A stretch of 64,000 nt of DNA from Candidatus Nomurabacteria bacterium (lineage in GTDB: Bacteria > Patescibacteriota > Minisyncoccia > Phycocordibacterales > UBA918), in the NCBI GenBank assembly GCA_020632095.1, contig JACKGF010000002.1, positions 80,502 through 144,501 of the forward strand, written 5' to 3'. How positions within the stretch are numbered: the first letter of the stretch is position 1; every line of letters starts with the position of its first letter. Below are positions 1,904-33,833 of this stretch, in pieces. A model generated the notes under the pieces. It made no database searches. It was not told the origin of the DNA and saw nothing but the letters and a program-made list of their open reading frames with translations. The position numbers were made by a program, and so were the translations under genes.

Positions 1904-2153
1904 ATTGTTTATTTTTTAATTGTTAGCGCTGACGCGCATGAGTAAAGTTTGCGAGAACTTGAAAGAATCCTACACCAAATCACCGCAGAAGAATATGACT
2001 AAACATAGAAGAATCACAAACGTGAAAAATGTGGTGTAGTTTGATTTTTTCTGCATTTCTAAGAGTTGCAAATCTTTTAAAACACCGTCGTTTGTGGCAT
2101 AGTGTCTTTTGGAACGCACATTGACGTATCCACCAACGCCTAAGGAGGCTCAA

Positions 2154-3185
2154 ATGACTGGTGCACTACTAAAAATGAACGCCTTCGTCCAGGTGGCGGA
2201 GGGTATGCATGTCTACTACGACTGCCCGATGATGTCCGGCGAAGATTTTCGGAGCGATCAGTTTTTCAAGGAAAACCGGGGTAAAACCGGCCTCGTGAAG
2301 GGCTTCCCTGAGAAGTTCGTCGGGCCGCTTGATTCCAAGGGCCGTCTGCCGGGTGTCTACATCAAACCCGGCTACATCCATGTGCAGTTTGAAGGCGAGG
2401 AAAAAGTTCACCAAGGACTCAACCTCCACTATTTCATTCTGCTCGACGTCGGCCAAACCGTCGTGCCCGAAGCGAGCCTCGAACACCAAAAGGTGCGCGA
2501 CTTGCCAGAGGCGATCGAGTTCTGGCCCGGTGATCAGGTCTGCAAAGTAAACGACCTTCTTCGGACGGTTCGTTTCGTCGAGGATGTCCGCATCGGAGAC
2601 AACGGCGCGCTGATTTACGTCCTCGCCGAAACTGCCGAAGCGAAACAGCAACGGCAGGATGAAAAGGAGGCGGAGATCGCTCGTCGGCGTGAAGAAGCCA
2701 AGAAGAGTGACGACCCGCTTGCGGGATTTCCACTCGGACTCGGTCTCATGGACCATCCGCGCACTGAATCGCGCAAGGCCAATGACCTCACTCTCGTGAC
2801 TCGGGGGAACGTCTATCACCTCTATCACGATCCTGCTCAACTCGCTTTTGCTTCTTCAGAACAGGAAGTGGGATTCTGGGCGAAGGACGGCATCTCGACG
2901 ACTGTCTATGGCGGCGGCAACCACATGCCTCGCTGGGAATGGCCGATCGAGAAAGCCAGGGAGATGGTCGAGAAGGGCGATGGCGACCTCGTGATTGCGT
3001 CCAAGCAATACGAGAATGTCATTGTCACTGGCCGTGGTGGCGACTTCAAGGTTCGCAAACTGCATTCCTGCTTCGCCCAGCATCGCGAGCGAGTGCGTGC
3101 ACTTTCGCTCAGCTTGGCCAAGCCTCCGGTCGAGGAAGACATTTCCTTCGGCAAGAGGGCCATGGCCCTGCTCGGCGACGACTGA
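2154..3185 (+). CDS. Hypothetical protein (~344 aa), high-GC (~57%) foreign gene; likely start at ATG 2154 preceded by aaggagg
   Basis: Long ORF with strong SD; GC far above window average (many antisense ORFs in the same span are GC artefacts); followed by GC-rich terminator 3209-3242. Confidence 0.7.
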   Translation: MTGALLKMNAFVQVAEGMHVYYDCPMMSGEDFRSDQFFKENRGKTGLVKGFPEKFVGPLDSKGRLPGVYIKPGYIHVQFEGEEKVHQGLNLHYFILLDVGQTVVPEASLEHQKVRDLPEAIEFWPGDQVCKVNDLLRTVRFVEDVRIGDNGALIYVLAETAEAKQQRQDEKEAEIARRREEAKKSDDPLAGFPLGLGLMDHPRTESRKANDLTLVTRGNVYHLYHDPAQLAFASSEQEVGFWAKDGISTTVYGGGNHMPRWEWPIEKAREMVEKGDGDLVIASKQYENVIVTGRGGDFKVRKLHSCFAQHRERVRALSLSLAKPPVEEDISFGKRAMALLGDD

Positions 3186-3206
3186 TGCCAATTGGAAAGT
3201 TCGACT

Positions 3207-4251: not shown

Positions 4252-4914
4252 TACGTTAATTTTGATATAAACGGAGTTCTCAACTCACCCACAGAAACAT
4301 CTAGTGAGAAAAATATCTTAAATTCATTTGGTGAAGTCATCTCAAGATTGCAAAATTCTTGTTTGGAAGCAGAAAAGAATAGGGGCGAGCTTTACGAGAT
4401 TTACCACAAATCTTCAGTAAATCTTATTTCTAGAGATGAGATGATAGACAAAATGTCTAACCTTCTATTGTGTAAACCACAAGAACTAGTTAAATGTGTC
4501 CACAATATTTACTCTGAAGGTTCAGTTGAAAACGTGAGTTTGTATGACTTTCTGGAGGCCATATCTAAGAGTAAACTTTTAAAGATTGGCTTACTATCAA
4601 CTCAATTTCCGTTATCAAAGGATATGCTGGTTCCCAAAAAGTATTACGATAACTTTGACTCACTTGGAATTTCTTGTGACAGCGAAATTCATCTCAAAAA
4701 ACCTGAGGGAGCTGTATTTGCAAAAATTATTAAAGAACTAGATACAAAACCAGAAAATGTGATTTTTGTTGATGACCAACAAAAATGCGTTGATGCTGGC
4801 AACCAGTTAGGGATAAATTCAGTTCAATTCATTAATAATAAACAATTAGCAAAAGACTTGGTTAGATTTAAAGTTCCTGGCGAAATAGGTCCATTCCTTC
4901 ATTTTCTTGACTAA
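4252..4914 (+). pseudogene. HAD-superfamily hydrolase-like gene lacking a canonical start; motif I remnant (FDINGV) lies in-frame upstream of first possible start (TTG 4348)
   Basis: C-terminal HAD motifs (KKPEG.., VIFVDDQQ) in the listed ORF 4348-4914; in-frame extension back to stop at 4249 contains YVNFDINGVL but no ATG/GTG/TTG start; flanked by att-like direct repeats 4151-4169 and 4927-4945. Confidence 0.5.
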
Positions 4915-5081
4915 GTGGCTCCAAATCATTCCCCGTGGGATCACAAATTTTTAAGCTATATACAACAACGTATTCTAGAGCACCCTAAGGGAGATTGGAA
5001 CCTTATAGAGGACCACATTGAACTATATTGGTTTTTCTGTATTATAAGAGTAGTAAAGAAATCACATAAGGAAACAAACAC

Positions 5082-5447
5082 ATGAAAGTATATTGTGCTT
5101 CAAAAAGCAAATACGGGCCACTTTGGAAAGAATGGGAAGATAATGGAGTCCAAGTAACTTCCAGCTGGTTGGAGAAATTTGACCAAGGTCGTCTCCCTGA
5201 CCAAACAGAACACTGGGACCAAATTCTTGAGGACATTCAAGGCTCAGATGCATTACTACTCTATTCTGAGGAAGGAGATGTTCAGAAAGGAGCATTGGCT
5301 GAATTCGGCATTGCGTTTGCTTTAGGAAAAAAGTTATTTTATGTTGGACCTACTGAAGGTTCTCTCACTGCAGTGGAGCACAAAAATGTTCAGCATTACC
5401 CTGACTTGAAAACATTCTTCAGCGAAGTATGTGGAATCGCCCAATAA
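5082..5447 (+). CDS. Nucleoside 2-deoxyribosyltransferase-like protein (121 aa)
   Basis: N-terminal KVYCAS and C-terminal ..GALAEFGIAFALGKKLFYVG resemble the 2-deoxyribosyltransferase fold signature (E-x-G-x-A-x-A-L-G-K); SD aagga upstream; terminator 5466-5518. Confidence 0.45.
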   Translation: MKVYCASKSKYGPLWKEWEDNGVQVTSSWLEKFDQGRLPDQTEHWDQILEDIQGSDALLLYSEEGDVQKGALAEFGIAFALGKKLFYVGPTEGSLTAVEHKNVQHYPDLKTFFSEVCGIAQ

Positions 5448-7469: not shown

Positions 7470-8726
7470 TTATGTTAATAGTAATTTGCCTGACACGTCT
7501 AACTTTACATTTTGTCCATTTTTTTCTGCAATTGCAAAACCACTATCATCCCTATAAGACCCTACAGTGTCATATTCGCCAACAACATCCCCTGTTGTTG
7601 TATCAACAATCATAAATTTATCCTCAGGTGTCCCCACAATCCACAAATTACTTTCTTTTGCATAATTTCCAATGTTCTGATGATTTGGGTACTGATCAGC
7701 AAACAATTCCCTATCCTTAACCACGTCGTAAAGACCAAACGATTCATTCCCATATTCCACAACTGCAGTCTGACCTACTACTTCAACTAAGTTTTTAAAT
7801 TCTACAGAGGAATAAGAACCTGTCTCAGGATTGATTATCCGAAGTTTATCATATGGACCAGACGCTAGCCCTACACCATTTTTCCTACCAATCATCCATG
7901 TTCCTCCAAGCTCTCTTCCAAGCCTTTCTGTTGAGCAGATTTGGTCTCCCTTGGAATTTACCAGACTCTCTACACCTTGATCATCCTTAAGAATACTTAA
8001 CCCTTCTTGCATACCTGCTACAACACTACTGTATCCATTTTCTCTGGCGAAATGGGCGGTCTCAACAGCACGTAAAACCCGATCCTGGTTTTCACCATCT
8101 GTAACTAACCCTGAAAGTCCTTTTGATGAATTAATAAAGTAAAAATCAGATCTTAAGTTGTAAGTGCGATTACCATATTCCAAATCAAACTCGCCCACAG
8201 TAACATGAGACGATGATGGTTCAGTATTAAAAGAATACTTTCCCGCTTTTTCAAAATCAACACCATTTACGGACTCAACTTGCTCAACAGATGTTGGTTC
8301 AACAGTATTTGTTGAATCAACATTTATTTCAAACTCACTTACTGCCTTCTCACCAGAAAATTCTTTTATTTTATGACCAAAAACCGTAGCTACTGCTGGA
8401 AGATCTTCAGCAATTTGTCTTCGAGCATCTTCACCTTCTTCAGAAGTATAATCGAAAGCGGTTTTTAAAAGTTTGACTAGCTCACCAATACCCATTCCAA
8501 AACTTTCTTGCACTTTATCGGGGTTACTACCTCGCACTATATTATTTATACCGTCAGGGTCAGATGCAAATGAAATAATAACTTTAAAATCAGATAAATA
8601 ATTAGAACTTTCTTGAGAAACAACTTCCATCCTAGAGCCATCAGTATCTACACTCAATTCAACCGGACGCTCTTCCTCCCCATTACTAGGTACTGCTGAC
8701 ATTGGTCTATTAAAACTTTCTTTCAT
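7470..8726 (-). CDS. Hypothetical protein (418 aa), AT-rich islet
   Basis: Long ORF, no recognised domain. Confidence 0.5.
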   Translation of the reverse strand: MKESFNRPMSAVPSNGEEERPVELSVDTDGSRMEVVSQESSNYLSDFKVIISFASDPDGINNIVRGSNPDKVQESFGMGIGELVKLLKTAFDYTSEEGEDARRQIAEDLPAVATVFGHKIKEFSGEKAVSEFEINVDSTNTVEPTSVEQVESVNGVDFEKAGKYSFNTEPSSSHVTVGEFDLEYGNRTYNLRSDFYFINSSKGLSGLVTDGENQDRVLRAVETAHFARENGYSSVVAGMQEGLSILKDDQGVESLVNSKGDQICSTERLGRELGGTWMIGRKNGVGLASGPYDKLRIINPETGSYSSVEFKNLVEVVGQTAVVEYGNESFGLYDVVKDRELFADQYPNHQNIGNYAKESNLWIVGTPEDKFMIVDTTTGDVVGEYDTVGSYRDDSGFAIAEKNGQNVKLDVSGKLLLT

Positions 8727-26541: not shown

Positions 26542-26973
26542 ATGGAAAATATTTCCGGATTACTAGTATCGTTATCCATCGCATTACTGATAATCGCAGC
26601 ATTTCGTTTCTTTTATATTATCCGTAAGGAACGGAGAGAGAACCTCCTACAATACAAAAGGCTGTCCAGAGAAGCACGATTCCTCAATAATCTCAAGGAC
26701 ACAATGTTACGTTGTGCTGCCACAATAGCTACTGAGCTATTAGCGCATCCTAACACACCACTAAACGATCAACCAAACAAAAAAGTAATCCTGCTGGAAC
26801 GGATAAAATACGAAGAACTGAGTGATGTTTTCAAACGTAGAGCTAAGATTTACAATGATGGGATAAGGCATTGTATTAGCTTCTGTTACGAAGAGTTACT
26901 ACCGAAAGGGATAGAAGTGACGCTCCCACAGGAGTTTAAGGACGACTTCTGCTTTGTGATTATGAGCAGATGA
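26542..26973 (+). CDS. Hypothetical membrane-anchored protein (143 aa)
   Basis: ORF with N-terminal TM helix. Confidence 0.4.
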   Translation: MENISGLLVSLSIALLIIAAFRFFYIIRKERRENLLQYKRLSREARFLNNLKDTMLRCAATIATELLAHPNTPLNDQPNKKVILLERIKYEELSDVFKRRAKIYNDGIRHCISFCYEELLPKGIEVTLPQEFKDDFCFVIMSR

Positions 26974-29403: not shown

Positions 29404-30387
29404 ATGACTAACTTACGAAGTTTGATGGCAAAATTTTTCTTGCTTTTGAGCATTGGATTTATTTTTGTGGCTATATCGGAATTCTGGTTTTATCAACTCC
29501 CTTCCGACAGTGGGTACACCGAAGTCTTATTGGCATACGGAATTATTGGTTACGCTTTTCTTATCTTGCTTTCACACTATCAAGTTTGGAATTTTAAAGG
29601 GTTTTTTCTGGCGGCGGCCGTGTTTGGCTTTCTGGTTGAAGGAGTGCCAGTGCCAACATTATTTACCATTCTTCCCTTCACAATCGTTTGGACCAGCCTG
29701 GCTTGGCACGCCCTGATATCAGTCGCGATTTTCTGGTACTACTTCAGAATCATTATGACAAAAACGGTTTGGTGGAGGAAAATATCGTTTATGGTGGCAC
29801 TAGGACTGTTTCTTGGCGCTTGGAATACCTACATGTGGAATATTGTCGAAACCACCGGAGGCGGAGCCACTGTACAAAAATTTCCAACTGAGTGGTTTTC
29901 AACCACTATCTTTGCCGACCAATTCCTCACAGGCTTTGCACTATTTCTGCTCGGCCACATTATATTCCAATTCGCTTATCCAAAGGCTCTACCAATACTG
30001 CATCGAGAAAAAATTATAGTAGCTGTAATTATAACTTTTTTCTTTGTTGCTGGTTCGCTTTTAAATATGTTTCCTTTTTCTTTAACCTTGATTCCTCTAC
30101 TCTTAATTTGTCACCTAGCCTTAAAGAAACATCAGCAATCGAATGACCTGGTGAACACAAAAACAAATCACATCACCGAAACTTTTAGTTACCTTAAGCT
30201 TTCTTGGCTAGATTATTTGTACACACTATTAATCCCGATTGTTGCCATCGGCACTTACGATTTGATGTATACCTATAAAATTGAAATTGAAATGAACGTA
30301 CTCTTAATTCTGACCGCCGGCCCAGTATCCGTCATCTTATTTCTTAAAGCGTTATGGACCAAGAGTAGTAAAGAATCTAAAATTTAG
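29404..30387 (+). CDS. Polytopic membrane protein (327 aa), unknown function
   Basis: Highly hydrophobic ORF. Confidence 0.5.
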   Translation: MTNLRSLMAKFFLLLSIGFIFVAISEFWFYQLPSDSGYTEVLLAYGIIGYAFLILLSHYQVWNFKGFFLAAAVFGFLVEGVPVPTLFTILPFTIVWTSLAWHALISVAIFWYYFRIIMTKTVWWRKISFMVALGLFLGAWNTYMWNIVETTGGGATVQKFPTEWFSTTIFADQFLTGFALFLLGHIIFQFAYPKALPILHREKIIVAVIITFFFVAGSLLNMFPFSLTLIPLLLICHLALKKHQQSNDLVNTKTNHITETFSYLKLSWLDYLYTLLIPIVAIGTYDLMYTYKIEIEMNVLLILTAGPVSVILFLKALWTKSSKESKI

Positions 30388-30704
30388 AGTTATCAGTTTA
30401 AACACCCACAACACAAAACACGTATCCAGTCTGCACGGAGAGAGATTTATCTGAGCATGCCTAGCAGCAACACCCAGAAATGCACACCACTTACGTATTC
30501 TGTGTTATAGGTGCTAGAACATAAAACTCTATCACGAGTCAAGATTGACTCTGATAATCTTGACTGAAGTACTTTATCTCTTTGAAAATTCCAATCAGGT
30601 TGAAATTCTCAAAAGATAGGATGAGTCTGGTAACACAGACTCATCCCCAAAGTTTGATTTTTAATTCTGTTGCCACGTGGGTTATCTCCCGCGCCGAAGC
30701 TTAT

Positions 30705-31053
30705 TCATATGCGTCTGCGCACCCGAGCCAACCACTCGTTGAGGAAGCTCTCTGAGAGTCCTTCCCCGACAAGCTCAATGGTCTCGGGTACTTCTTCGAC
30801 AATAATGCCGACTCTTTTTTGAGTCAGTCGGCCAATATTGCCTCTGAAGTACGGCACCAGATCGAATAAGCGACCTTCGCTTAGTTCGACGAGGATACGG
30901 GCAGGCATTGTCAAATATGCCCAGCCGTTGCCAGGGGTGTAGATGTCCCACCCCTCAGCACGCAACCGTCCAAGGTGTCCCGGGTCTTGCCGAGAATACG
31001 ATTGGACAGCTCCGCCGTCACGACGCTCAGTGTAACGAACAGTAAACTTCATA
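30705..31053 (-). CDS. Hypothetical protein (~115 aa; probable start MKFTVRY with GGAG SD), high-GC islet
   Basis: ORF with SD; GC ~58-60% versus ~42% background. Confidence 0.45.
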
Positions 31054-31232
31054 GCATCTCCTTTATTTACCATGTGATGCAGTCACTTAGGGCAGACTAC
31101 TACTCCGTTAAATATTGAATTCCCATCACAGAACCCATTTAAACTTTCAAATCATTACACTTAAAAACCTCAAATGGATGGGCGAACATTACCAATGTTC
31201 GCCCAAAAAAACCTTGTGACCTTTCGGGCAGG

Positions 31233-31661
31233 TCACTTCTCCTCGGGCGGTGGCCCGAGTCGACGGGTGAGGAGTTCGATTTTCTCGATCTCCTCATAGT
31301 GGGAGAAAGCGAGAATATCTCGCCCTCCCTCATCTTTGCCGGCCACGATGGCCCGCCCGCCCTCGTCGCGCGCAAACTGCGCGCGAATCAAGGCAACACC
31401 CAGCTCGCGCTCGGCGTTCACCAAGCGTGAGAGCACCGGGAACGGTGCCGTCGCTTCGACGGCGACCACCCGGTCGCCGTCGGCCTGCAGGTGCTCAATG
31501 AGCGCCTTGACCGCCCCTACGGGATCTTCCCCGTAGCGGATGTCTTCGGTCACGACGCGCACGTCGTCGCCGAAAACGGCTTTGAGACAAGCCATCCGGT
31601 CAGCATCGACCGGATGACGCGTGATGCGAGCTACGATTTTTTTCTGCATTTTCTTCTCCAA
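31233..31661 (-). CDS. Hypothetical protein (142 aa), high-GC islet
   Basis: ORF; same strand/islet as neighbours. Confidence 0.45.
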   Translation of the reverse strand: MEKKMQKKIVARITRHPVDADRMACLKAVFGDDVRVVTEDIRYGEDPVGAVKALIEHLQADGDRVVAVEATAPFPVLSRLVNAERELGVALIRAQFARDEGGRAIVAGKDEGGRDILAFSHYEEIEKIELLTRRLGPPPEEK

Positions 31662-31816
31662 CCCCAGTTAACCCCGAGGTGCGGGTGTGCAGAAGATTCT
31701 GCGCAATCTATCAACCAACAATCACTTGCAGGCTGAATAGATTGAAGAAGCCAGCGACCAAGCGAGCTTCTTCAATAACCGTGCAGACTTTTACGGAGTC
31801 TGCGAACCGGAGACGT

Positions 31817-32053
31817 CTACCAAGACATCTCGTGATACACTGACCGAGCCTCCTCCTCGGTCAGCATGTAAACAGGCTTGTCCCAAAAGGGACAGCCGTG
31901 GCGTTCGGCCAACAAGTGGCCGAGATTGCGAATTTGATCGCGGGGGTTGGTAGCCCCCGCGATGGTGGCGACGTCGGTGCCGTCGACTTTGACGGTGACT
32001 ACGCCACCGTCAAGCTCGATCGTCAGACCGAGCCGAATAGGCAAATTTTCCAT
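31817..32053 (-). CDS. Hypothetical protein (78 aa), high-GC islet
   Basis: ORF. Confidence 0.4.
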   Translation of the reverse strand: MENLPIRLGLTIELDGGVVTVKVDGTDVATIAGATNPRDQIRNLGHLLAERHGCPFWDKPVYMLTEEEARSVYHEMSW

Positions 32054-33023
32054 TTTTATCTCCTCGCCACGTCATGTGGCACTATGTCCCGACTAGAATA
32101 GTCAGGACGTTTGAATTTTCTTCACCGACACCATGCCAATGAAGACATCTTTAGGCAACTCTCTCTCCGAGTTCCCCATGTGAGCACACCTGATTCGCAA
32201 TATGATTTCATTTATATTTGATAGTGATGTACTCATATAGAGAAGCAACCTCTCTCCAGTTGCTAGCCATGGGGTGGCGGCGGAGCCGCCACCCGTTTCT
32301 ATTTATTGTTACCACTGGTATTTACCCAGCAGTTTTGTGGACAAAGACATTTTTTGGTTTATCTTTGTCCTAATATTCCTTTAGTGGTGTCTGTTTTACC
32401 TAAAATTAGGTTCAACAAAACCGCCACTAAATTTGTTGTCAAAGTCTCTCTCCTCTCTCTCCTACGCCACAATCTATTCGCTTATAGACTTTGTGGGGTT
32501 ACAAGGTGCAAAGGACATTTCTAGATAAAAAACTTGGTTAGAATTTTTTATCCAGCCGATGTCCTTCCGACCAATTGGTCAGAAAATCACGGTTGATACT
32601 GTTTGGTAGCGACTCGAAGTCTCGACCACCAAGGTGATGGGTTTGCGGCCTATCACCAGTATCGTGCAAACGAATCTCAAGTTTGATACAAGTAGTTCCT
32701 TCCGCTCCCTGCTAGCCACACTTTCGGCTGTGGTCACCGTCCAGCTCTCAAATCTGAGGACTGGAGCGAGCTTCTCGGCTTGTATTTATCTCTTTGATTC
32801 CCTGTGAGGTACTCTCTCCGAAATTTGGATTAGAGCGTTGCTCTTTTCTTCTTTCTTAACTGTCTATATCATAACAGAGTTTGGATGTATTGTCAATCAT
32901 ATTGAAACAATACTGTCATGCGCAACCATAGTATTCAGCCATAATTATATACATATTTTCACTATACACACCTTTTTGTCATAAGTTTATTGACAAAATA
33001 AACTTAAGAATTATACTTAGAGC

Positions 33024-33833
33024 ATGGAAAATTATAAAAATCAATTAATAAATTGTGGTCTAACCGAACATCAAGCCACCCTATACGAGCTACTTATAAA
33101 GAGTGGTGGCTTACGCGCTAGTACTATTGTCCGCAAGATTAATAATTCCCTATCGCGACCAATGGTATACGCAGTTTTAAATGAGCTAGTAGATATTGGA
33201 TTAGTAGAAAAAGATGAACTTGCGTCAAAAGTCACCCGCTTTACCCCCGCCCATCCCGCAAAACTTCAAGACTTAGCTGCTGAAAAACGACTAGCGGCAG
33301 ACTCAATGATTGAGGCAGCCGCCTCAGTTATTCCTCGTATGGTCTCTGAATTTAACCTCATTTCAAACAAACCCAGTGTTCGTTTTTTTGAAGGAAAAGA
33401 AGGAGTCAGAGCCGTACTGAATGACTCACTCACCGCAAAAACACCAATCCTCTCCTACACCGATGTGGAAGCGGTTGAAAAAAACTATAAAGATGTTGGT
33501 GATCCGTATCTTAAAGAACGAGCACGTTTAGGCATATTAAAAAAACTCATCGTTGACGACACCCCTTTTGCCAGAAAATTGTATAAAAATAGCGACGAAA
33601 CTCATTCAGAAGTAAGACTAATACCAGTCGATAAAAATCCTCACCAAGTATCCATACAAATTTATGATGATAAAGTCTCCTACTTAACCTTTTCCCCGGG
33701 AAAGGAAGTGGCAGTTATTATTCAAGACGCTGAAATTAGTGCTATGCAACGACATCTATTTGAACAATTATATAATCTTTCCGCTCCACTCTACACACCA
33801 ACTTCAGACAAGTCCGACAATTTCCTAGCTTGA
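33024..33833 (+). CDS. TrmB-family transcriptional regulator (N-terminal winged HTH)
   Basis: LINCGLTEHQATLYELLIKSGGLRASTIVRKINNSLSRPMVYAVLNELVDIGLVEK matches TrmB HTH pattern. Confidence 0.6.
   Translation: MENYKNQLINCGLTEHQATLYELLIKSGGLRASTIVRKINNSLSRPMVYAVLNELVDIGLVEKDELASKVTRFTPAHPAKLQDLAAEKRLAADSMIEAAASVIPRMVSEFNLISNKPSVRFFEGKEGVRAVLNDSLTAKTPILSYTDVEAVEKNYKDVGDPYLKERARLGILKKLIVDDTPFARKLYKNSDETHSEVRLIPVDKNPHQVSIQIYDDKVSYLTFSPGKEVAVIIQDAEISAMQRHLFEQLYNLSAPLYTPTSDKSDNFLA

Follow-up and report, generated by a model that had tools for sequence, protein, structure and literature searches.

A GC-rich islet in the genome of a Candidatus Nomurabacteria bacterium constitutes accessory cargo and is not part of the core genome; it occupies a variable slot 3' of a co-oriented structured RNA. 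The islet lies within a stretch of 64 kb, which was analysed as a whole and is referred to as the window, and it carries three small genes, designated A, B, and C. We consider that they are best explained as horizontally exchanged cargo at an RNA-anchored hotspot, with B acting as a nucleotide binder or cleaver that modulates immunity, and we assign a probability of about one half to this joint reading. The features of the region are compiled in Table 1; comparable loci from other genomes are given by L numbers.

Table 1. Features of the islet and of its RNA-bearing flank, in positions of the window
Feature	Position	Strand	Remarks
Terminator-like hairpin	30618-30647	-	12-bp stem and T-run; closes the three-gene unit
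ORF A, 115 aa	30705-31052	-	slot held by a Csx3-kinase gene in 7 other B loci
Two hairpins just 3' of the B stop codon	31179-31236	-	terminator-like at 31216-31236; perfect 12-bp palindrome at 31179-31205
ORF B, 138 aa	31233-31649	-	142 aa from the TTG start at 31661; uncharacterised small Rossmann-like family
ORF C, 78 aa	31817-32053	-	orphan; coding status backed by composition and Shine-Dalgarno sequence only
GC-rich 10-bp hairpin between the RNA and ORF C	32272-32294	+	terminator-like on the plus strand only
Structured RNA, ~370 nt	32487-32862	-	covariance-model core 32506-32749; transcribed toward C-B-A
Promoter-like site of the RNA	32868-32896	-	TTGACA, 17 nt, TG-TATGAT; 11/12 matches, extended -10
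Promoter of the TrmB-like gene	32990-33017		under the palindrome 32979-33009
TrmB-like regulator gene	33024-33833	+	PF01978 on identical gene; host-like composition; divergent from the RNA

Composition, genes, and borders of the islet

The segment 30650-32300 represents the GC peak of the window, with 53.5% compared to a mean of 41.8% over all 1651-nt stretches (sd 3.3, z 3.56). The initial annotation had recognized this GC-rich islet but had put it at 58-60% GC, a figure that the whole interval does not reach. The only other stretch of the window above 50% GC is located at ~1500-2900. A first GC-rich islet (~2100-3200) was considered as a relative and was discarded, since it shares no protein or DNA with any of the compared loci. 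The GC content amounts to 54.0% for A, 62.8% for B, and 57.8% for C, with 40-50% in the spacers, and the GC3 values of the three ORFs (0.56, 0.73, and 0.71, respectively) exceed those of the flanking host genes (0.31-0.49).

Three co-oriented minus-strand ORFs of 115, 142, and 78 aa had been predicted from the sequence, and all of them are present, whereby the length of B depends on which of its two start codons is used. A Shine-Dalgarno sequence of the GGAG type, which had been expected for at least one of them, precedes the ATG of A, B, and C by 5-8 nt (in C, GGAGA 5 nt upstream). None of the three gene products yielded a match in Pfam, PHROGs, PADLOC, or NCBIfam, in agreement with their description as unrecognisable. 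Their designation as orphans applies to C only, for which the sole database match is an identical protein from the same species, but neither to A, which has two homologues, nor to B, which has 34. The dN/dS ratios of 0.10-0.44 for B and of 0.08 for A (calculated against L010) indicate purifying selection on both genes and, together with confident AlphaFold2 models of the two proteins, speak against ORFs without coding potential.

The homologues of A share 65% and 47% identity with it, and their core is strongly conserved; the homologue from L011 sits between hammerhead ribozymes. An AlphaFold2 model of A (pLDDT 81.6) gave no fold match in a Foldseek search of the PDB. The possibility that A represents a degenerate Csx3 was rejected, as neither the Csx3 models nor tblastn gave a match and no remnant could be aligned. 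Both A and C are near-orphans that accompany B in this species only, and we infer that they are accessory genes.

The bounding hairpin of the initial annotation was recovered at the downstream end of the unit. No integrase, direct repeats, or empty site marking the islet borders were found, nor was a recombinase ORF detected near the islet. A 13-nt perfect direct repeat, TTTATCTCTTTGA, which occurs at 30573 and 32785, was evaluated as an att-like border; 7 of 200 shuffles reach it, so that it was attributed to chance, and it has no counterpart in six other loci. Likewise, a 27-nt inverted repeat at 30436/32143 (74%) was too weak to be taken as a border and was also ascribed to chance.

The structured RNA and the variable slot at its 3' side

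The ~700 bp that follow the islet had been regarded as non-coding. Instead, they harbor a conserved structured RNA with its own near-consensus promoter. This RNA is previously undescribed and shows strong covariation. Searches with nhmmer and a covariance model yielded eight distinct loci with a full-length copy and two with a partial one, and the core of the window copy scored 212.8 bits against the covariance model. The RNA folds into six helices; one of its hairpins is capped by a GNRA loop, and its long 3' hairpin carries the loop UAACCA. In the alignment, 95.2% of the cells are paired compared to 80.2% in shuffles and 35-46% in slid controls, and 19 pairs are changed on both sides, a number that is reached by none of 500 shuffles; the single-sequence fold has a z-score of -3.66. 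No Rfam family matched at E<=1, and with ARAGORN and Rfam there was no indication of a tmRNA, SRP RNA, 6S RNA, or T-box. On visual inspection, the RNA lacks both a tag reading frame and a T-loop. A search of IMG/VR with a conserved 23-mer from the RNA gave no match.

The promoter-like site of the RNA is kept in L026 and L012. A consensus scan of the minus strand between this site and C-B-A revealed no other promoter-like site, and judged from such consensus scans only, the strong promoter of the RNA probably drives C, B, and A.

In the window, the RNA is divergent from a TrmB-like gene and is followed by the co-oriented genes C, B, and A. Orthologues of the TrmB-like gene also flank the RNA in L012, L026, L030, L032, L034, L035, and L037, whereby the small co-oriented genes downstream of the RNA differ from genome to genome. 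The cargo of L037 shows no rise in GC content, in contrast to that of the window, L012, L030, and L034. In the closest sister locus, L030 (57% identity for the TrmB-like protein and 50% for an 835-aa neighbour), A, B, and C are missing and other genes are found in the slot, among them a HigB-like toxin gene in the equivalent position. A 107-aa protein of L030 (INKTPHP) was examined as a relative of B and dismissed at an hhalign probability of 0.3%. In L034, the RNA-adjacent position is held by a homologue of AcrIII-1/Crn2 (PF08960 match), and a distant member of the B family sits in the same cargo. The segment is missing from most relatives and thus is not a conserved core region. The arrangement of TrmB-like gene, structured RNA, and cargo constitutes a hotspot of a subgroup of Patescibacteria.

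This layout resembles integron arrays and tRNA/tmRNA islands in that small co-oriented genes of foreign composition are lined up behind a fixed anchor; they vary by genome, seemingly lack promoters of their own, and include toxin genes. In integrons, the tyrosine recombinase IntI adjoins the array and attC sites separate the cassettes; here, no integrase (IntI or other) is located next to the anchor, and the spacers in related loci are hammerheads. The layout differs from both integrons and tRNA/tmRNA islands in the anchor itself, a structured RNA that is unclassified and neighbours a TrmB-like regulator.

The B family and its probable exchange among genomes

ORF B belongs to a family with 34 homologues at 54-74% identity and with 102 clusters at 50% clustering. 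Patescibacteria account for all named sources, except for two MAGs that are labelled Gammaproteobacteria. Beyond the database scans of B itself, 65 members of the family were scanned singly against Pfam, which gave nothing consistent, and a sequence search of the PDB with two B profiles produced nothing significant. Searches for B in IMG/VR, INPHARED, and PLSDB were negative. The AlphaFold2 model of B reaches a pLDDT of 94.7, and an R-I-T-R-H motif is situated after strand 1. The residues R8, R11, H12, R18, D36, E65, R89, R94, R99, D111, Y118, and E119 are invariant. Tandem B-B fusions as well as B-B fusions with an additional unknown domain occur in the family.

In 18 loci the GC3 of B ranges from 0.53 to 0.92 and is each time above that of the adjacent TrmB-like gene. 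Between genomes, the B proteins show a mean pairwise identity of 58%, compared to 33% for the adjacent TrmB-like proteins. Composition and identity pattern together point to a horizontal exchange of the B family among Patescibacteria. The foreign origin proposed in the initial annotation is thereby supported, as it also is by the different genes in the closest sister.

It might be argued that B is instead an ancestral, slowly evolving partner of the TrmB-like gene, regulated by it and with an odd composition of its own, so that the islet would be a core region lost from many lineages. This old vertical partnership would account for the TrmB-like gene within ~2.5 kb of B in 11 of ~20 distinct loci, usually in divergent orientation and in several classes of Patescibacteria. 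Furthermore, the high GC1 of B (0.63-0.81) reflects the abundance of Arg, Gly, Ala, Asp, and Val in the protein. However, the GC3 of B, too, lies far above the host-gene values in all loci. In the close pair L015/L017, B and the TrmB-like protein are equally similar (85% and 84% identity, respectively); thus, slow evolution does not explain the difference of 58% versus 33% at long range. The distances of B and TrmB show no rank correlation either (rho -0.06). Moreover, B also occurs away from TrmB, flanked by conjugation-type TrwB/TraG genes in L014 and L107 or adjoining a large serine recombinase in L006, and it was found in 0 of 75 TrmB-related metagenome loci. We therefore regard a vertical partnership as unlikely.

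Company of B, its possible function, and significance of the locus

In 7 of ~20 distinct loci, B is directly followed by a gene for a fusion of Csx3 (the ring nuclease Crn3) with a kinase (L006/L019, L007, L012, L014, L016, L106, and L107). These genes match PF09620 and TIGR02579 and carry a P-loop domain. They are of the kind of Csx3', in which a Crn3 domain is fused to a kinase/transferase domain and which is reported to be common in cyanobacteria (PMC7371418). Unlike in this known setting, the B-linked copies are located outside any CRISPR locus and beside hammerhead ribozymes. No cas10, other cas genes, or cOA-activated effectors were seen in the 6-10 kb flanks of B, where the sole link to this kind of immunity is with other ring-nuclease families (Csx3-kinase and AcrIII-1-like). 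As far as is known, type III CRISPR is rare in Patescibacteria.

Hammerhead ribozymes of type III lie between or beside cargo genes in 7 of ~20 loci, often between B and the Csx3-kinase gene, as in L106, the locus of the closest homologue of B. Arrays punctuated in this way are L011, L012, L014, L020, L025, L027, L034, L106, and L107. The cores are canonical (CUGANGA, stem II, GAAA, and a GUC or UH cleavage site), as in the type III hammerheads of bacterial intergenic regions (RF00008), and score 45-72 bits with our own model and 38-48 bits with Rfam.

The window differs from these loci. With a covariance model and filters off, the best hammerhead score was 11 bits (E 0.65), and an Rfam scan of 30350-33050 at E<=1 gave no hammerhead; the site just 3' of the B stop codon, where related loci have a hammerhead, carries two hairpins here. 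A conserved element termed motif X, which precedes the hammerheads of L012 and L106, was searched for in the window and not found. A tblastn search of the window with a Csx3-kinase protein was negative, no AcrIII-1 homologue was present, and A, B, and C matched neither the Csx3 models PF09620/TIGR02579 nor PF08960 of AcrIII-1. In the window, ORF A has presumably replaced the usual Csx3-kinase partner together with the hammerhead. Since Csx3, an AcrIII-1 homologue, and a hammerhead are all missing from the window, the functional assignment of B rests on association in other genomes.

B probably works as a dimer and binds a nucleotide ligand or cleaves it, most likely a cyclic oligoadenylate or an RNA end related to it. 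The ligand would be contacted by an invariant Thr/Arg/His/Arg cluster, which sits where strands 1 and 4 end. The islet would then modulate nucleotide-signalling immunity, either as an anti-defence system or as a self-limiting off-switch. In a Foldseek search of the PDB with the model of B, the best match was the cA4-bound CARF domain of Cam1 (TM 0.40, E 1.5e-3). The Crn1 enzyme Sso2081 was also among the matches, and generic Rossmann-like folds scored about equally; against BFVD only weak, generic Rossmann-like matches were obtained. Small CARF-like ring nucleases of the size of B exist (Crn1/Sso2081, Csx15, Csx16, and Csx20; PMC12409355). B shares with them a length of ~110-180 aa, a Rossmann-like alpha/beta core, and conserved polar residues at the ends of strands 1 and 4, and its tandem-fusion relatives suggest a dimer. 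For Crn4, catalysis by His/Arg/Thr has been reported (PMC12830947). In contrast to these ring nucleases, B has an extra beta-hairpin and the R-I-T-R-H motif, which are not described for those families; the structural match reaches a TM-score of only 0.40, no profile links B to CARF or any PDB chain, and type III CRISPR genes are missing from the flanks. A role in defence, as suggested in the initial annotation, or in anti-defence is plausible by association only, namely through the Csx3-kinase, AcrIII-1-like, HD, MoxR-VWA, and HigB-like genes in the company of the B family elsewhere.

As a different function, B might bind RNA and process the ends of the structured RNA or of hammerhead-cleaved transcripts, with Csx3 as an RNA deadenylase and the polynucleotide-kinase-like domain as partners, and would then serve repair or maturation and not cyclic-nucleotide signalling. 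The 5'-OH and 2',3'-cyclic phosphate termini left by hammerhead cleavage could serve as substrates for a kinase and a phosphodiesterase. The original description of Csx3 was that of a deadenylase, as cited in PMC7371418 and PMC7159879. In addition, many arginines of B are invariant, and B follows the RNA or its 3' hairpin in the window, L012, L026, L006, and L025. An obligate linkage of RNA and B was rejected, however, as the RNA is undetectable in at least 12 B loci even with filters off and is present in some loci without B. Moreover, the window contains neither a hammerhead nor Csx3. The AcrIII-1-like protein of L034, which is a homologue of a viral anti-CRISPR ring nuclease (AcrIII-1/Crn2; DUF1874, PF08960) and has no similarity to A, B, or C, represents a second, unrelated cA4-degrading family at this type of locus, which points to the ligand and not to RNA ends. 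A role in RNA handling thus appears rather improbable to us.

The islet could also be what is left of a prophage or integrative-conjugative element, the rest of which has decayed, with three genes that have no joint function. The foreign composition would fit, as would the TrwB/TraG-type genes and the large serine recombinase next to B in other loci, but the searches of IMG/VR, INPHARED, and PLSDB gave no match, which also weakens the initially suggested phage derivation; there are no integrase, att repeats, structural genes, or replication genes around the islet in the window, and purifying selection acts on A and B, both of which are intact, so that we consider such a remnant very unlikely. 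A toxin-antitoxin or abortive-infection module, in which two to three small genes form a poison-antidote or phage-sensing unit and which had likewise been suggested, is most improbable: the compact co-oriented small genes, the HigB-like gene in L030, and MoxR-VWA and HD genes adjoining B in other loci are compatible with it, but A, B, and C have no PADLOC match and no TA family or domain in Pfam, and since the neighbours of B vary and A and C are near-orphans, there is no conserved toxin-antidote pair.

The preferred reading of an exchanged cargo with a nucleotide-directed B could be extended to two linked claims, which we regard as doubtful, namely that B constitutes a new class of cyclic-oligoadenylate ring nucleases or sponges and that the RNA locus is a gene-capture platform specific to Patescibacteria. 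On such a platform, the structured RNA would anchor and drive an array of exchanged cassettes enriched in anti-signalling genes, and in many genomes hammerheads would cut the array transcript into single-gene RNAs. The system would be functionally integron-like, but made of RNA elements.

In the searched literature we found no paper that combines Csx3 with Patescibacteria, none among those listed that links hammerhead ribozymes to Patescibacteria or to the candidate phyla radiation, and no description of a regular hammerhead placement between the cargo genes of a Patescibacteria hotspot. Patescibacteria are episymbionts with reduced genomes, and their accessory genomes and mobile elements are poorly known. 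The locus represents a recurrent site where foreign genes collect in these bacteria, and it is marked by a structured RNA that lies outside every Rfam family and shows strong covariation. We know of no settled answer as to the purpose of bacterial hammerheads, and the hammerheads between the cargo genes offer a natural system in which this can be asked. cA4 is a messenger of type III CRISPR, and the B family, which travels repeatedly with two unrelated cA4-degrading families, is a concrete and cheaply testable candidate for a new nucleotide-binding or ring-nuclease family.

Composition and coding content of the islet

The islet at 30650–32300 has a GC content of 53.5%, compared to 41.7% window-wide, and is the most GC-rich of all 1651-nt stretches of the window (mean 41.8%, sd 3.3, z 3.56). 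The 58–60% given in the initial annotation does not hold for the islet overall and applies to parts of it only, with 62.8% for ORF B, 57.8% for ORF C, 54.0% for ORF A and 40–50% for the spacers. The three co-oriented minus-strand ORFs were found with the sizes described, and each of them carries a GGAG-type ribosome-binding site 5–8 nt 5' of its ATG. The unit ends with a hairpin, and two more hairpins lie 3' of the ORF B stop codon. The flanking genes, host-like in composition, are those for ValRS and a membrane protein of 327 aa on one side; on the other side lie the genes for the TrmB-like regulator and a protein of 835 aa that has a GNAT-like region. Identical copies of the locus are present in contigs labelled Candidatus Kaiserbacteria and Candidatus Nomurabacteria, which places the window in a Patescibacteria (CPR) genome.

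As had been supposed, none of the three proteins has a family match in Pfam, PHROGs, PADLOC or NCBIfam. A and B have coding potential, because both have homologues, low dN/dS values and predicted structural models. For B, 34 homologues with 54–74% identity were found (102 clusters in the 50%-clustered library), pairwise dN/dS is 0.10–0.44 and the AlphaFold2 model is confident (pLDDT 94.7). ORF A has two homologues (65% and 47% identity), with which it shares the invariant core SRQDPG...EGW.VY.PGNGWAYLT; its dN/dS is 0.08 and its model (pLDDT 81.6) gave no fold match in the PDB. ORF C matches only itself in the databases and is a putative gene on the basis of its GC3 (0.71) and ribosome-binding site.

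The 9-mer CGGAGAGAG occurs five times in the window (0.19 expected), at 26632 and 30436 (+) and at 32161, 32812 and 52983 (-), whereby one copy is located within the structured RNA and another two, inverted relative to each other, lie on either side of the islet. Another GC-rich stretch (2109–3185) holds a 358-aa ORF without Pfam match or relative among the fetched loci; two tandem copies of a 193-nt unit (1362–1731, 99% identical) lie just 5' of this stretch.

Positions of features in the window and in related loci from other genomes or metagenomes (L numbers, own coordinates)
Feature	Locus	Position	Strand	Remarks
ORF A	window	30705-31052	-	115 aa
ORF B	window	31233-31649	-	138 aa from ATG; 142 aa from upstream TTG
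ORF C	window	31817-32053	-	78 aa
Unit-ending hairpin	window	30618-30647		12-bp stem + T-run
Structured RNA	window	32487-32910	-	with promoter; covariation
Hammerheads	L012	6527-6575, 7823-7871		type III, between or beside cargo genes
Hammerhead	L106	1676-1724		type III
Hammerheads	L011	1-21, 505-553, 1427-1475		type III
Hammerhead	L014	7609-7659		type III
Hammerhead	L107	7521-7571		type III
Hammerhead	L020	8627-8676		type III
Hammerhead	L025	7656-7704		type III
Hammerhead	L027	9746-9794		type III
Hammerheads	L034	3426-3483, 4476-4533		type III
Second motif	L012	6430-6475, 7725-7775		5' of hammerheads
Second motif	L020	about 8425-8480		5' of hammerheads

A structured RNA divergent from the TrmB-like gene

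The flank of ~700 bp that had been described as non-coding is not empty. Cross-locus comparison of the interval from the TrmB-like gene to B led to the identification of a structured RNA with ~370 nt of conserved blocks, including covarying hairpins, and a conserved near-consensus promoter (TTGACA-17-TGnTATGAT, 32896–32868 (-)). RNAalifold predicted 43 pairs and compensatory changes in 18 of these. A covariance model matched the full-length RNA in the window (32506–32749, 212.8 bits), L026, L030, L032, L034, L012, L037 and L035, and only the 3' hairpin domain in L006 and L025. In an alignment of ten sequences, 95.2% of cells are paired versus 80.2% in column shuffles, 19 pairs show changes on both sides (reached in 0 of 500 shuffles), and pairing falls to 35–46% when partners are slid by 1–3 columns. 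This alignment was fitted to the covariance model, which favours the structure; however, the effect size and the independent MAFFT/RNAalifold result agree in upholding it. The window copy folds on its own with a z of -3.66. This RNA has no match in Rfam 15 at E<=1 in the window or five other loci, and ARAGORN did not find a tmRNA.

Both in loci with B and in loci without it, the RNA is always divergent from the TrmB-like orthologue; 12 B loci of other lineages have no detectable copy of the RNA. Therefore, the RNA is part of the host locus and not of B. In the promoter of the TrmB-like gene, a 13-nt inverted repeat (TCATAAGTTTATT / AATAAACTTAAGA, 32979–33009) spans the -35 box and is a candidate autoregulatory operator. 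Because the -10 box ends 6 nt 5' of the ATG, the gene may have almost no leader.

Probable exchange of cargo and distribution of the B family

The small ORFs 3' of the RNA and on its strand differ from genome to genome, with raised GC in the window, L012, L030 and L034 but not in L037. The nearest sister locus, L030 (57% identity in the TrmB-like protein, 50% in the 835-aa neighbour), carries ORFs of 206, 107 and 219 aa and a HigB-like toxin gene in place of C-B-A, and B is carried by none of 75 TrmB-related metagenome loci. Thus, the islet is absent at the sister position and is not a segment conserved in all relatives. In L034, the equivalent position holds a 107-aa STIV B116-like protein (4783–5106 (-); PF08960, E 2e-9; PDB matches 2j6b, 2x4i, 6scf, 2j85). 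This is the AcrIII-1/Crn2 ring-nuclease family, a name also found in PMC12409355. The L034 cargo also includes a distant B-family member (hhalign probability 96%); the close type of B is absent from that genome.

Scanning species-representative genomes yielded 13 B loci, and ~20 distinct loci together with contigs from an exact look-up. By their labels, the 13 come from Minisyncoccia, Doudnabacteria, Adlerbacteria, Paceibacterota, Saccharibacteria, Magasanikbacteria and Parcubacteria, and from two MAGs given as uncultured Gammaproteobacteria (L018, L023), a label that differs from all other sources and may be a binning or labelling error. B genes are GC-rich in every locus (GC 50–70%, GC3 0.53–0.92) and always exceed the adjacent TrmB-like gene in GC3 (0.31–0.67). 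Mean identity is 58% among B proteins versus 33% among the adjacent TrmB-like proteins, without rank correlation. B would not seem to be intrinsically slower-evolving, because both identities are ~85% in the one close pair (L015/L017), and its high long-range identity suggests more recent common ancestry, i.e., transfer. Both the GC3 and the identities are suggestive of the foreign origin initially proposed. At the islet borders, neither an integrase nor convincing att repeats were found; a 13-nt flanking direct repeat was discarded as att border, being reached in 7 of 200 shuffles and having no counterpart elsewhere. The B gene of L026 (8001–8729), probably a decayed copy, is truncated past about residue 101 and continues into a sequence akin to another cargo gene.

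In seven loci (L006/L019, L007, L012, L014, L016, L106, L107) the gene after B encodes a ~315-aa protein with an N-terminal Csx3/Crn3 domain (PF09620, E 1e-15; TIGR02579 over cut-off) and a P-loop, kinase-like C-terminal half. This Csx3-kinase architecture has been described under the name Csx3' as a common one in cyanobacteria, with no function ascribed (PMC7371418). The closest B homologue (74% identity) is in L106. Other neighbours are an HD-domain protein (L027), MoxR and VWA genes (L025, L029), TrwB/TraG-type coupling-protein genes (L014 3446–5548, L107 3269–5374) and a large serine recombinase gene (L006 9572–11257), the latter two types adjoining B-Csx3-kinase pairs, which hints at integrative or conjugative carriers. 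The end of the recombinase ORF resembles a putative tRNA gene.

An Rfam scan of the related loci gave near-threshold Hammerhead_3 matches between cargo genes, and with a structure-aware pattern scan, 17 canonical type III hammerheads were detected, compared with none in shuffled sequences. With a covariance model built from these 17, sites of 45–72 bits were located in L011, L012, L014, L020, L025, L027, L030, L034, L076, L097, L106 and L107. Their placement is regular: between B and Csx3-kinase (L012, L106), 3' of Csx3-kinase (L012, L014, L107), 3' of B (L020) or on both sides of an ORF A homologue (L011). About 50–100 nt 5' of the hammerheads in L012 and L020 lies a second conserved RNA-like motif with a covarying hairpin (GTGAGYGGGGA...AATCCATA...GGGCGAGACCRC) and no Rfam match. 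The window has neither this motif nor a hammerhead (best score 11 bits, E 0.65, filters off).

Possible function of B and meaning of the locus

The predicted B model has the topology beta-alpha-beta-alpha-beta-alpha-beta and ends with a beta-hairpin plus a final strand. Invariant residues (R8, R11, H12, R18, D36, E65, R89, R94, R99, D111, Y118, E119) group in this model after strands 1 and 4, whose ends form the usual ligand crevice in Rossmann-like folds. The best Foldseek match in the PDB, the cA4-bound CARF domain of Cam1 (8t65_B, E 1.5e-3, TM 0.40), is weak, and the Crn1 enzyme Sso2081 (7ygh) is also listed, with unrelated Rossmann-like proteins scoring alike; no profile connects B with CARF. 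Small ring nucleases are Rossmann-derived dimers of a size comparable to B (PMC12409355), and the unrelated Crn4 uses conserved Thr/His/Arg residues (PMC12830947). Family members include tandem B-B fusions, some followed by a ~350-aa domain without Pfam match. Given these fusions, the repeated co-occurrence with two unrelated families that degrade cA4 and the published work, the most economical hypothesis is that B acts as a ring nuclease or binds cOA. Such a nucleotide or cOA role is still rather doubtful: no cas10 or effector genes were seen near B, and the window has none of the informative partners (Csx3-kinase, AcrIII-1-like protein, hammerhead). The main functional rival is that B would take part in RNA processing, together with Csx3 acting as a deadenylase, the kinase domain and hammerhead-made RNA ends. 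The toxin-antitoxin and phage-remnant readings of the islet gained no positive support, as A, B and C have no Pfam or PADLOC family and searches of IMG/VR, INPHARED phages and PLSDB plasmids yielded no B family member.

Overall, we consider it probable, at about three in four, that the islet is horizontally exchanged accessory cargo at a hotspot beside the TrmB-like regulator, anchored by a previously undescribed structured RNA. The islet alone is a modest finding. Its surrounding context is unusual and merits follow-up, as it combines a new RNA, a new ring-nuclease-linked protein family and hammerhead-punctuated cargo in Patescibacteria.
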